A DNA stretch of 64,000 nucleotides from Octopus vulgaris (lineage: Eukaryota): the NCBI GenBank assembly GCA_951406725.2, contig OX597814.1, forward strand, positions 14,694,001-14,758,000, in the 5' to 3' direction. The notes under the pieces were generated by a model. That model saw nothing but the letters and a program-made list of their open reading frames with translations, made no database searches and was not told the origin of the DNA. A program made the translations under genes and the position numbers. Numbering within the stretch: the first letter of the stretch is position 1; each line of letters starts with the position of its first letter. Positions 22,801-28,800 of this stretch are shown here, one piece after another.

Positions 22801-25800
22801 CGTTATGTTTATGTTTAAAAGAGTTCTAAATAAGGGGAGGTAGTTTTTTCACTTTTTACTATTTTCTATATACTCAACCACGTGCTTTCACAAACCAACT
22901 TTCTTATCTATCTATCTATCTATATATATATATATATATATATATATATATATATATATATATATATATATATATATATATATATATATATATATATATG
23001 TATATATATATATATATATGTATATATATGTATATATATATATACGGTACAAGCAATTAAGATTCAAGTGAGTTCTGTTGAATTCACATGAATATGGTAC
23101 TTAACTTGGATGCACCAGAAATCTATATGGTGTTAACCATACGACAATGCAGGGTGATTATAAATAGGAAAAAAAGCAACAAGAATGGATCAATATTTCG
23201 GTACAATTGTTTCGTACGAAGACATCTTTATTAAGGCTACAAAAATTGCAGTAAATATAAGTGACCCGTACTCATCAGCCGAAAAAACATCTGAGATCTC
23301 CAAACATCAAACGGGGTGATGTTACACTCGTGAAACATCATGGAAAGTTCTATAAAAATGAGATTTGATAACAAATGGACTTCTAAAAGTTCTTTTAGTA
23401 TTGCACAGTCATATATCAGGTTTTAAAGAATTTTTTAAAACCTCTTAGTTTTCCAGAAAGTGAAGATGAAAGTGAAGATGTAAATCCATCCATATTGAAG
23501 AAAGTTTGATTTCTGGAGATATGGTGAGAGGTATCGTACTCACAGAATATGTATTTATCCATATATAGTTCATAGTAAAGTGTGATTCAAGCTGTGTGAA
23601 GATATTTTGGATACATTTTTGAGAGTTTCTCAAAACTGCTATGTTAGAATCCGAAAAAGTTGTAGGAGTGTCAGTGAAGCGTAGAGACAGTCATATAGTG
23701 GAGACGAACTGACTGATATAGAAATCTGCAAGAATCACAGAGCTTAAAGGAGGAATGTTAAATTTGACCACCTACTGTTGTTAATTGCTATATAAAGAGG
23801 AAATGGGAAGGTGAAAAGGGGGGGGTCAAAGGTTGTTTCTATAGGAAAACATCTTAGTGTATTTAGTGCAATATTCGAACGGAGATCATTTAATTTATTT
23901 CTTTATTTATTAATGTTACTATTAATACATTGCCAGGTAATGGGAATACAATAAGAGGTCAGAAGAAAGGAAATAGAGTTATTTTTCATAATGAAAAACC
24001 GTTGTATTATAGATCTGGGATTAGCAAAATTTATTAGTAGTATATAAAAGAACTAAGAAGTCTAATTAACCAATTTGCTATAAGTAGGTTTACTTAAAAT
24101 AGACTAAAAATTAGAAAGAAATAATTTAAATTATCTACATAGTCTAATAGAATGAAAATTTCTAATCAACTAATTTATATCTATAAGTATCACCTAGTAC
24201 AGTTAGAGAGAGAATATAACCATTGCTAATGAGATCGTAGCTGTCTAATTAAATATATAATATATAATATGTAAGAGTATTGCTTTATTCAAAGTGATTT
24301 TTATATACTGTTATCATTTAAAATATTTAAGAGTCTTAATCCTAGCGTGGATACAAGAAAGACCCAATTCTATCCGGTATTCAATAAAATATCATTTTTT
24401 CTATTCATTAGTATTTCAAATGTTTCCATGGAGCAAAGTTGACAACCAACTCTGCTATTTTTATAAGGTATCGCTCTTCTAGCTAGTTCCCAATTAAGGT
24501 TATACTTAATATTATTGTTTTTTAGTTCCCAGATTTTACTTGAAAGAGTGGTGCTCTCAGCTTTATGACGTAATTTGAAAGAAGAGAGATGGTTACTAAG
24601 GCGTTTTTAAAAATTTATAGTACATCCTAAATAGGTAAATTTGTTATTATCTGTGGTTATGGTGCATTTGTAGATTACGTTATTTAACCCGCATAGACCA
24701 GGCGCCGGGCATTTTGATCTAATTCTACAGTTACACCTAGGGGGATTATAATTCGATGTGGAATTACTCGAGGATAGAAGTCTCATATTACTGTTACTCA
24801 AAACATTATGAGTATATTTTTCGTTATTTTGGTTACTGCTGCTATCTTAAATAGAGTTATCGTTATTGTAGTTGATGTTATTATCTAAAGTAGTATTATC
24901 ATTTATCGGTATTCCTACACTATCATTTGATTCTATAACCCTACCATCATTACTAATATTGTTGATGTTGTTACTATTGTTGCCAGTATTAGTTTCTAAA
25001 TGTATAGTGTTATTTTAGATATCATTGTTGCCTTCATTCTCGGTATTTTCACTCTTGGTATTATTCGTATTATTAACATACTTGTTCCTATTTGTGTTAT
25101 TATTATTACTAGCAATTCTATAGCTATTGGTTATACTTATGTTATGATATTCATTATTATTATTGTGGCTATTATTAATTTCAGTAATGTTACTACAATT
25201 TCCATTTGTATTTTTATTGCTATTATTTAAATTTTTCCTGGCTAGTTTAATTTTATTATTATTGATCTTGGCTATTAAAGTGGACATATTTGGGAGGGTT
25301 GAATAAGAAATTCTGACCGTTATTTTAGAAATAATTTTATGATATCTATGAGAGGATGGGAAGTTCTTTTCTAGAATTATTTTGAATCTACTCTGAATAT
25401 CTGATAAAACCGCACAGTTGAAAGGGCTATTCAGCCACATTATGTCCTTCTTATTAAATTTCCTAGAATTAGAATTGGGGTTATTTGAATCGTTCCTACT
25501 CTCACCAGAGTCGTTGTATTTATTAATGTTCTTATTTGCATGTTTCTTAGTTTTATCAAAGTTTATCTTATCCGTATTACCTGTGTTCTGTTCAATGTTC
25601 TTATTATTATTATTATTTTCATTCGGATATTTTGTCATCGTAAATCTACTTCTACTATTATTTCTGGCGGGATCTCTATTGTTGTTTACGTGGCAATTGT
25701 TACTTTTTTTTATTAGGGATATGTAAGTTCTTTTCATCAATGTTACTAATTGTATGCTTCTTAGTTTTATCTAAAATTATCTTATCAGAGTTACCTATGT

Positions 25801-28800
25801 TTTGGTCTATGTTCTTATCCTTGTTCTTATTACCATTTAGATTAGATGTCACATTAAATCTACTTCTACGTCTATTATCGGCGCGATCCCTACGTGTTGT
25901 TTACGTGGTTATTGCTACTTCTATTATTATGAATTTGTAAGCTCTCTTTATCAATAAAGGTAATTTTTTGGTTGTATCCTGCCCTAGATAACACCGCATT
26001 ATAATGCTCCGAATGAGAGTTAAATATATCAAAATTGGATGATAATTTGGATATTCTTACGGAAATATTTCTAACCAAAGATTTAATTAGATTTGGGTGA
26101 TGATTTGATAATTTATTTACGTAACTAGTGATTTCACCTTCTTTTCTAAATGGGCAATGTAGCTTAGAGTTAAGGTCTAATGTAATATCTAGAAAATTGA
26201 CTATTTTAGTGCCTGGTTCATAGGTTATGCTAAGGTTGAAATCTTTAAAGAACCTATTAATTTTCTTTTTGATCCTTTCAATGTTCGATTTATTATTACT
26301 AGGGACAAATTAAATGACCTCCGTTCGAATATTGCACTAAATACGCTAAGATGTTTTCCTATAGAAACAACCTTTGACCCCCCCTTTTCACCTTCCCATT
26401 TCCTCTTTATATAGCAATTAACAACAGTAGGTGGTCAAATTTAACATTCCTCCTTTAAGCTCTGTGATTCTTGCAGATTTCTATATCAGTCAGTTCGTCT
26501 CCACTATATGACTGTCTCTACGCTTCACTGACCCTCCTACAACTTTTTCGGATTCTAACAGCAGTTTTAATAAACTCTCACAAATGTATCCAAAATATCT
26601 TCACACAGCTTGAATCACACTTTACTATGAACTATATATGGATAAATACATATTCTGTGAGTACGATACCTCTCATCATGTCTCCAGGAATCAAACTTTC
26701 TTCAATATGGATGGATTTACATCTTCACTTTCATCTTCACTTTCTGGAAAACTAAGAGGTTTTAAAAAATTCTTTAAAACCTGATATATGACTGTGCAAT
26801 ACTAAAAGAACTTTTAGAAGTCCATTTGTTATATAAATCTCATTTTTATAGAACTTTCCATGATGTTTCACGAGTGTAACATCACCCCCTTTGATGTTTG
26901 GACATCTCAGATGTTTTTTCGGCTGATGAGTACGGGTCACTTATATTTACTGCAATTTTTGTAGCCTAAATAAAGATGTCTTCGTACGAAACAATTGTAC
27001 CGAAATATTGATCCATTCTTGTTGCTTTTTTCCTATATATATATATATATATATATATATATATACATACACACGCACACAAATATATACAACGGGCTTC
27101 TTTTATTTTCTGTCTACCAAATCCACTCACAAGCCTTTGGTAGGCCTGAAGCTATAGTAGAAGACAATTGCCCAAGGTACCACGCAATGGAACAGAATTC
27201 AGAACCATGTGTTTGGGAAACAAGCTTCTTATCACACGACCACACCTGCGCCAATCTCTTCACAAAAATAACACGTTAAATACAGTTTATATAAACAAGC
27301 ACAAATTGATGCATTACATCAGTTGTGCGAAATAGTTCTCTCAGCGTGTCAGTAAAGATGCAACACAGAGAACAGTTTTGACAAAATTGTACTGCCAATG
27401 TTTTCACTTGAACCTTTAGTAGTCAAGTCAATGTTTATATTCAAATTTTTGCAAACACTACTTCTGTATTTAATATACATATTTTTCCTTTTCTCTTCAA
27501 AGATTCACGACTAATTCACAATATGTAAATTGTTCTTGGAATCCCTGTACAGGTTATACAGTCGGTCATACAAAAGATGTTGCAGTAAGTGATGCTTGCT
27601 TTAATGTGTATATTTAATACAAATTTCCTGAAGTTGTTCTTTTAAATGGCCCTTGTTTTACTTACATATGATTTATCTTACATTATTTAATTGCTTTATC
27701 ATTGCATTGAGACCACACGGCCATACTGGGGCACCACCTTGATGTGGTTGGTCAACCAAATCAACTACTACTTTTTTTTCTATAAATCTAGTACTCATGA
27801 TATCGATATCTTTTGTCAAACCGCTAAGTTGCGACAGCGTAAACAAACCAGCAACGGTAGTGGGTGGACAAACATATACGCAGAAACAAATATACACTCA
27901 TCCATATACATTCATCCACACACACACACATATATATATATGTATGTATGTTTATTTATGCTGGACTCTCCCGTTGGTTTCGTTGTATGAGGCTCCGGCA
28001 ACGTACTCTTTCTTTGTCAGTCATAATGCTTATGTCGAATGTGACATTTAAGTCCTGCCAACGATTTACAAAGGCTGCAGATGTTGCAAGTATGAAGATT
28101 ACAGGCCAGTGCCAGTGGTATATTTGCAGCCACCTTTCTCCTTTGCCTTGCAGCCCTAAGCCTGTTAATGCTGATTGTAGCAAGATTTTTAATACTATTT
28201 TGAAATAACAATTTCCAATTTGTCCGTTCCAAGGCTGTTTGCTCAAAGGTGTTGCGAGCTATCTTCATTTCTAAGAGGTTACTCTTCAGCTTGTCCTTAT
28301 AGCTGGGCCATGGTCGAACAACGTTCCTGAACCCATTCTCAAACTGACTTTGGGTATTCTTTCGTCACTCATTCTGATGACATGGCCTACCCAGCGCAAT
28401 TGTGATTGTATAAGGAAGCACTCAGTTCCTCCAATTTTACACTTGCTAAACAAGTCGGCATTAGAAACTCTGTTTTTTTAGTGAATAACTGCAGATTGTC
28501 TTCAGGCAGTCTTTGTGGAAGATGTCTAGTTAGTTAATGTGTCGTCTATAGGGTATCCACGATTCTGAGACATAAAAGAGAGTAGTAAGAATGGCTGCTT
28601 TATAGACCTGTAGTTTGTTATCAAGTTTGATACCCTTTTCATTCCATAGGCGATGGCGGACTTTGCCAAATGCTTTGGTTGCCTTTGCAAGACGGTTGAC
28701 GATTTCATCACGAAGGGAAGCGCTCTACTTTCACTTTATTATCAAGATATGTAAATGATTTCTCATAATTGTCAGGAAAAGTATGAACCAGTGGCTTCAG

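Follow-up and report, generated by a model that had tools for sequence, protein, structure and literature searches.

A truncated Hydra-clade Penelope-like element carrying a probably silent hammerhead ribozyme in the first coding intron of an Octopus vulgaris receptor-like gene

Introduction

Insertions of Penelope-like elements (PLEs) are frequently flanked by an inverted, 5'-truncated copy (Craig et al. 2021, PMC8557442). The same paper defines the Hydra clade of these elements, and its definition is used here as the standard of membership. Among the elements in its supplement are Hydra-1_Obim, a Hydra-clade element of Octopus bimaculoides, and Penelope-13_HM, which has a 5'-truncated inverted copy and a hammerhead ribozyme on both strands, i.e., a layout in which a ribozyme is accompanied by its own antisense is already catalogued for this clade. 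Opposite-strand hammerhead pairs have also been noted in Schistosoma (PMC4209133). Here, we describe an insertion of this kind in a 64,000-nucleotide stretch of the Octopus vulgaris genome (assembly GCA_951406725.2, contig OX597814.1, positions 14,694,001 to 14,758,000 of the forward strand). This whole stretch is referred to below as the window, and all coordinates are counted from its first letter. The element resides in the first coding intron of a gene of the mannose-6-phosphate-receptor-like family, in antisense orientation to that host gene.

Hammerheads of type I with a very short helix III are hindered in cleavage as monomers and are rescued by a tandem copy, while a single minimal motif was found to be uncut (PMC4209133). 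An axolotl monomer with the same type of helix III as that described here was cut to 6% in an hour, and one with two pairs to 22% (PMC7229834). Slow intronic ribozymes were without effect on splicing (Fong 2009, as cited in PMC10274809), and a study of a PLE hammerhead in anole is reported to have found no RNA-seq ends at its site (PMC11167929). In Xenopus, tandem, cleavage-capable retrozymes are under-represented in introns, which still harbor 42-44% of them (preprint 10.64898/2026.07.22.740005). In coleoids, repeats within introns are edited on a wide scale (PMC9068888).

A first-pass annotation of the window proposed that the element gives the host pre-mRNA a two-state switch, where the transcript either folds a ribozyme and cleaves itself or buries the ribozyme in a long double-stranded stem. 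The results presented below favor a more ordinary reading, i.e., a dead Hydra-clade element with an inverted repeat that is a by-product of insertion and with a ribozyme that is silent.

Results

The inserted element

The element spans positions 23045 to about 27036 and is flanked on both sides by (TA)n, on the left by a (TA)n-rich microsatellite (22905-23044) and on the right by a (TA)n microsatellite (27035-27065). Read along the minus strand, it is composed of an inverted copy, a reverse transcriptase (RT) fragment, an Asn-rich linker, an endonuclease (EN), a 3' region, a pseudo-long terminal repeat (pLTR) with a hammerhead, and a tail. A tblastn search with P0007, a full-length homolog, aligned RT at 26288-25956 and then EN at 24735-24385, both on the minus strand. 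What remains of the RT is a 5'-truncated C-terminal fragment (25890-26309, minus strand) in which the catalytic YRDD motif is absent and the N-terminal RT region that would hold the RWK and DKT motifs is deleted; these latter motifs are found in 3/7 homologs, namely those that are long enough (P0007, P0009 and P0010). The Asn-rich linker (25513-25955, minus strand) harbors an internal duplication with two copies of ~230 nucleotides (nt) that are 75.7% alike. The EN is of the GIY-YIG type (24385-24735, minus strand; 34% to P0007, E 6e-10), and its coding sequence is interrupted by an in-frame stop near 24607 and, towards the end, by a frameshift. A CxCX5C linker motif at 24735 precedes the EN. 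A three-frame translation read by eye revealed CxxC and CxH motifs around the conserved E and N, the CxH being in another frame after the frameshift; the CCHH motif was not seen in this translation at the place where we take it to be expected. Pfam recognised neither the RT nor the EN fragment of the element. The one-sided 3' extension of 119 nt beyond the repeat (23045-23163, minus strand), delimited from the sequence and by self-BLAST, is called a tail by analogy with those in PMC8557442, which are 30-40 bp.

The order of RT and EN, the CxCX5C linker, the combination of CxxC and CxH with no CCHH seen, the (TA)n target and the 3' hammerhead all fit the Hydra clade. We classify it as a truncated, broken Hydra-clade PLE, and the PLE origin put forward in the first-pass annotation is upheld by the RT, the C-terminal GIY-YIG EN and these clade marks. 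An origin from the Naiad/Chlamys PLEs was rejected because members of that group have an N-terminal EN and no canonical hammerhead, whereas here the EN is C-terminal and a canonical hammerhead is present.

The inverted repeat

A self-comparison of the window identified two arms, the 3' pLTR of the element (23164-23896, minus strand), which is antisense to the host, and an inverted pLTR copy at the 5' end of the element (26307-27036, plus strand), which is host-sense. Over 734 aligned columns the arms differ by 13 substitutions and 5 gap columns (97.5% identity), and the spacing between the BLAST arms is 2411 nt. The inverted repeat of ~730 bp with highly similar, inverted pLTRs was thus described correctly from the start, as was its placement; both arms lie within the first coding intron (19821-27502, 7682 nt). 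No other inverted pair found in the gene comes close in length or identity, the two others being 97 and 111 nt long with 86% and 77% identity, and 466 nt separate the end of the stem from the 3' splice site. By analogy with the catalogued PLE insertions, the inverted copy at the end probably arose as a by-product when the element inserted. We also considered the differences between the arms as an imprint of editing and rejected this idea, as only 3/13 substitutions are A/G in the element sense.

The hammerhead motif and its antisense

The host-sense arm harbors a type I hammerhead at 26917-27005 (plus strand) with a cut predicted after 26999, i.e., 503 nt upstream of exon 2. Helix I is composed of 6 bp, the core CUGAUGA is found at 26923 and GAAA at 26988, and the cleavage triplet is GUA. 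Helix II starts with 7 bp and extends into a long, irregular hairpin, spanning 58 nt in all, while helix III consists of one Watson-Crick pair, in addition to the A15.1-U16.1 pair, closed by a palindromic tetraloop. All elements that define the type, i.e., CUGANGA, GAAA, an NUH triplet and helices I and II, are present. A motif scan found 3 cores in the window as compared to 0.03 per window in 30 block-shuffled windows, none of which contained a core with a palindromic helix III. Rfam gave no hammerhead match at the gathering threshold or at E<=10, and the designation as a hammerhead therefore rests on the motif and folding analysis; the likely reason for the missing match is the long helix II. 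An intact host-sense hammerhead ~500 nt before exon 2 had been proposed, and this motif is confirmed as intact in its sequence, its activity being a prediction.

The element-sense hammerhead at 23196-23284 (minus strand; cut predicted after 23202) is antisense to the host RNA. It had been called an exact antisense of the host-sense copy; the antisense copy is indeed present, but the match is 88/89, with the difference located in the helix II extension.

The 58-nt span of helix II exceeds that of any of the 26 Hydra-clade hammerheads catalogued in the supplement of PMC8557442, where loop 2 is composed of 3-10 nt. A second Hydra-like family in the window displays a helix II span of 53 nt and a different helix III palindrome. 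The long-helix-II hammerhead looks like an octopus variant of the motif rather than a new system, and the supplementary figures of PMC8557442 and PMC4209133 may show such variants.

Cleavage competence

In the minimum-energy fold of the monomer the core pairs with loop 3. The calculated probability of the active fold at 37 °C is 1.1% and 1.3% for the two shortest sequence contexts; for three longer contexts the values are 0.2%, 0.0004% and 0.2%. At 18 °C the probability is lower. The active fold lies ~3 kcal/mol above the ensemble of the isolated motif. A tandem pair adopts a double-hammerhead fold of -44.0 kcal/mol, as compared to -38.4 kcal/mol for two monomers, and there is no same-sense tandem partner at the locus. 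Based on these calculations, the host-sense hammerhead is predicted to be dimer-dependent, acting as a double hammerhead of two same-sense copies.

Assuming a transcription rate of 1-4 kb/min, the polymerase would travel from the ribozyme to exon 2 in ~0.1-0.5 min, by which time 0.01-0.05% of the transcripts would be cleaved at the axolotl rate.

The duplex and its editing

The calculated energy of the arm duplex is -1247 kcal/mol, while the two arms by themselves fold at -161 and -126 kcal/mol. When 237 nt from the end of either arm are included, the active fold is ~127 kcal/mol uphill. Because the sense arm begins 610 nt upstream of the ribozyme, the stem could nucleate before the ribozyme emerges. 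In simulations where 10-70% of the adenosines were edited and the core was spared, the active fold was still 46-126 kcal/mol uphill in 60/60 molecules, and the chance that all six core adenosines escape 50% editing is ~2%. Editing would therefore break the ribozyme long before freeing it.

A switch would call for two comparably stable states; in the model these states are separated by 127 kcal/mol, a gap that simulated editing does not close, and the ribozyme is predicted to be inactive in either state of the proposed switch. The two-state ribozyme/anti-ribozyme switch suggested by the first-pass annotation is thus disfavored, considering the weak on state (active fraction 0.0004-1.3%), the much deeper duplex and the failure of simulated editing to free the ribozyme. 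It is also disfavored by the comparison of the arms, where the ribozyme shows no extra conservation (1/89 differences as compared to 17/645 in the rest of the arms, p = 0.71), a test of weak power with two sequences only. At the divergence of the arms, the 35-nt core is expected to be unmutated 65% of the time.

The suggestion that the stem is a likely ADAR substrate fares better. A near-perfect 730-bp stem in a coleoid, where editing of repeats is widespread, is a plausible, passive ADAR substrate, and by analogy passive editing of this stem, ordinary for coleoid intronic repeats, is likely. Contigs of four sequencing runs were mapped on the window, out of 24 listed runs that all consist of contigs and of which none is recorded as RNA; the RNA status of two of the four is a guess. 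In these two guessed-RNA runs the numbers of A>G and T>C changes were 16 and 15 in one and 17 and 26 in the other, and those of C>T and G>A changes were similar, at 13 and 11, and 19 and 21. An editing signal was not readable in the contigs of these two runs, where many family copies are mixed and similar changes are seen in the DNA runs.

The host gene

The host gene is composed of seven coding exons on the plus strand, at 19618-19820 (exon 1, with the start codon and a hydrophobic leader), 27503-27584, 30535-30623, 33212-33296, 36321-36412, 37689-37815 (exon 6, the transmembrane part) and 40824-40889 (exon 7, the cytoplasmic tail and stop). A strict splice-site scan missed most of the exons, which were read from the sequence and then checked; 6/6 introns are GT-AG and the exons join to a single, stop-terminated open frame of 247 residues. 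A non-coding exon may lie further upstream. Pfam Man-6-P_recep (PF02157) matches exon 6 (E 2.4e-07, 30.6 bits as compared to the curated cut-off of 25.4) and is also matched on the protein P0001, and the type I membrane layout fits the host chain. Judged from these matches, the gene is a member of the mannose-6-phosphate-receptor-like family. The host chain differs from the Octopus sinensis protein XP_029645661.1 at 5/247 residues, and this 98% match bears out the coleoid host that had been presumed. From a paralog it differs at 36 residues, and a third gene falls in the cluster of that paralog. LOC115219638, LOC115229283 and LOC115214345 are paralogs of the host gene. In the literature search the identifiers of the host gene were named in no paper.

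The differences between P0001 and the paralog P0002 are spread unevenly over the exons, being 8/67, 7/28, 0/29, 9/29, 3/30, 4/43 and 4/22 residues in exons 1-7. A contig of run X1 that covers 27313-27744 differs from the window at 10/432 letters, 9 of which fall in the 82-nt exon 2 and the remaining one in 350 nt of intron (Fisher p = 2e-6). All nine exon changes are nonsynonymous, which alone gives p = 0.09, and the 8 changed residues are those of P0002. Selection on exon 2 between species was dropped as an explanation since the letters agree with this known paralog at 8/8 residues. The exon 2 type of the window itself was not seen in the contig depth at this position in X1 (27313-27744) or X5 (27223-27730). 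Near-identical introns next to diverged exons in young paralogs or alleles point to either diversifying selection or gene conversion among these receptor-like genes. Exon 2 was covered in neither of the two guessed-RNA runs, which has no bearing on expression, given the 9/82 differences of the paralog-type exon and the 90% threshold, below which a spliced contig would drop. Several same-orientation copies of a repeat, which we take to be SINE-like (short interspersed nuclear element), are found in or near intron 1 (20007-20365, 22458-22610, 27038-27255 and 27773-27861).

Family copies and relatives

The element family is multi-copy in two DNA runs. In X1 the contig depth, which is not a copy number, is 402-93021 over 17 bins inside the element and 59-81 for flank-type contigs. 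In run X14, one of the guessed-RNA runs, a related copy of ~95-97% identity is represented by contigs that together span most of the element. At 23050-23267, i.e., the tail and hammerhead end, the contig depth is far above that of the element body in 4/4 runs, possibly due to many short 3'-end copies or to inflation at the repeat edge.

A second Hydra-like Penelope element is found at 47617-49104 (plus strand), with an RT that has frameshifts and is 32-35% identical to P0007, and adjoins (TA)n. Long-helix-II hammerheads of the second family are found at about 49710-49795 and 51895-51976 (plus strand) in the same sense, 2.2 kb apart; the base of helix II is broken in one of them, and the helix III palindrome of the other carries a single change. 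A further EN fragment like that of P0007 is located at 59062-59256 (minus strand; 37%, E 1e-4). Two Octopus sinensis proteins named after low-complexity proteins of Dictyostelium, P0005 and P0006, are 88% and 50% identical to the RT fragment; they are fragments of the Penelope family of the element and likely mis-annotated open reading frames of a transposon.

Among five related loci from metagenomes, a hammerhead was found in one, with a palindromic helix III. This Hydra-like locus, L003, harbors the hammerhead at 3424-3463 (minus strand) with a 10-nt palindromic helix III, and its EN is inverted relative to the RT. A long inverted pLTR was found in 0/5 of these loci, which gives no rate since 4/5 are shorter than 4.5 kb and several end within the element.

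Discussion

From the above results, we consider it about three-to-one likely (a probability near 0.76) that the locus is a dead Hydra-clade Penelope copy, antisense in intron 1, with an inverted repeat that is a by-product and a ribozyme that is silent. In this scenario a Hydra-clade element, truncated and broken, would have inserted in antisense orientation into a (TA)n run of intron 1. Host transcription would make the antisense arm first, and once the sense arm emerges pairing would begin 610 nt ahead of the ribozyme and then zip over it. The product would be a 730-bp stem with a 2.4-kb loop, removed with the spliced intron. ADAR would likely edit the stem, which would damage the catalytic adenosines and not release the ribozyme. 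The net effect of the insertion on the host is likely close to nil.

Several points weigh against this reading. Hammerheads of other elements act as monomers, i.e., the coral retrozyme monomer cleaves at 0.8 per min (PMC7229834) and the anole PLE hammerhead was cleaved in vitro from a single-copy template (PMC11167929). At the coral rate, cleavage would precede the synthesis of exon 2 in 10-33% of the transcripts. None of the 26 catalogued Hydra-clade hammerheads has such a long helix II, so a rate is not simply transferable from other hammerheads. Nearest-neighbour folding leaves out tertiary contacts, proteins and kinetics, and in the editing simulations edited adenosines were modelled as G or as a non-pairing letter, which simplifies inosine. 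Pairing across 2.4 kb may also be incomplete in vivo, by analogy with human Alu pairs, where editing declines with distance (PMC526178).

Other explanations differ in the part of the locus to which they assign an effect. The stem could matter without the ribozyme if a 730-bp duplex alters the rate of host splicing, nuclear retention or production of small RNAs. This idea draws on a pair of arms that is unmatched inside the gene and on a stem that comes within 466 nt of the 3' splice site and folds half of the intron away. However, neither splice site is covered, both arms reside in one intron such that all exons stay outside the loop, the reading frame of the host is undamaged and close paralogs exist, and we regard such an effect as unlikely. 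If instead a few transcripts remain unpaired, these could be cut slowly, as monomers or in trans with RNAs from other copies of the family, trimming host expression to a slight degree in an unregulated manner. The ~3 kcal/mol cost of the active fold is small, and the related copy seen in X14, whose RNA status is guessed, could be read in favor of partners in trans. Yet, at 6% per hour it takes 10 min to cut 1% of the molecules, so that an arm would have to escape pairing over many minutes, and for Alu, pairing between repeats of separate molecules in the nucleus was considered rare (PMC526178), which makes leaky cutting rather improbable. The inverted repeat could also be an artefact of assembly, since complex PLE insertions are known to trouble assemblies (PMC8557442) and the inversion junction is spanned by no contig among those listed for the four runs. 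The arms, however, differ at 18 columns of mixed type and run into different flanks, and the junction coincides neatly with the start of the RT frame; we give this explanation hardly any weight.

The remaining alternatives assign a regulatory role to the ribozyme. For a switch in which ADAR or another factor chooses between cleavage and burial of the ribozyme in the stem speak the geometry, which is as the first-pass annotation described it, the wide editing of repeat-bearing coleoid introns (PMC9068888) and the precedent of CPEB3, where an intronic ribozyme tunes the host mRNA and is blocked by an antisense oligonucleotide (PMC10274809). If true, the locus would hold a natural ribozyme/anti-ribozyme pair arising from a single insertion. 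We consider a switch very unlikely, because the on state is weak, the off state is far deeper with no release upon simulated editing, the time to exon 2 is ~0.1-0.5 min as compared to 2.5-3 min for CPEB3, there is no conservation signal and the layout is generic. No such switch appears in the titles and opening lines of abstracts listed by literature searches on octopus hammerheads and on intronic ribozymes combined with antisense, inverted repeats, retrotransposons and adenosine-to-inosine editing. In a more elaborate version, the inverted pLTR would be a co-opted safety catch, where the antisense arm holds the long-helix-II hammerhead off until that arm is occupied or unwound; the ribozyme would then form a double hammerhead in trans with transcripts of active family members, and the activity of the transposon would be read out in the splicing of a fast-diverging receptor gene. 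In a weaker form that applies to the whole genome, host-sense PLE hammerheads would persist in introns mainly if an upstream inverted arm masks them. The probability of this reading is very small.

The reading as a dead, silent copy makes the locus a tidy case of known Penelope anatomy within a gene. It suggests how an intron tolerates an element that bears a ribozyme, i.e., its body runs antisense to the host gene, and the sole host-sense ribozyme would be both dimer-dependent and paired off. The under-representation of cleavage-capable retrozymes in Xenopus introns (10.64898/2026.07.22.740005) fits such tolerance of a silent ribozyme. The locus would also be a clean site for measuring what ADAR does to a nearly perfect octopus stem of 730 bp, and the long-helix-II hammerhead variant, found in two families of the window, merits attention.

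Among the known systems, the CPEB3 ribozyme (PMC10274809) is similar in that a self-cleaving motif is sense to the pre-mRNA in an intron and antisense pairing can block it. It differs in having a conserved, HDV-like (hepatitis delta virus) fold and a half-life of 2-3 min that is matched to 9.9 kb of remaining intron; here, the repeat is young, the predicted rate is slow and exon 2 is 0.5 kb away. Intronic Alu pairs (PMC526178) and edited coleoid repeats (PMC9068888) share with the octopus locus oppositely oriented copies in one pre-mRNA and a long stem. In contrast to Alu-type pairs, both arms here originate from one insertion event and are 97.5% alike, and editing is a prediction.

The dimer-dependent type I hammerheads of metazoan PLEs and amphibian retrozymes (PMC4209133; HHR_Amex1, PMC7229834) have the same 6-bp helix I and standard core. 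The one-pair helix III with a palindromic tetraloop and the predicted double-hammerhead action are likewise shared with them. Unlike these hammerheads, the octopus motif has an inverted second copy and no tandem partner, and a long irregular hairpin replaces loop 2, such that the usual contact between loops 1 and 2 is not evident.

The closest described system is the Hydra clade itself. The octopus element shares with Penelope-13_HM and its clade the RT followed by a GIY-YIG EN, the CxCX5C, CxxC and CxH motifs, the (TA)n target and the 3' type I hammerhead, and with Penelope-13_HM also the 5'-truncated inverted copy that bears a hammerhead on the opposite strand. With Hydra-1_Obim it has in common the CxCX5C linker before the EN, while its hammerhead sequence marks another family. 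What sets this copy apart from the catalogued Hydra-clade elements is a long, duplicated Asn-rich linker, a tail of 119 nt and the fact that the copy is dead.

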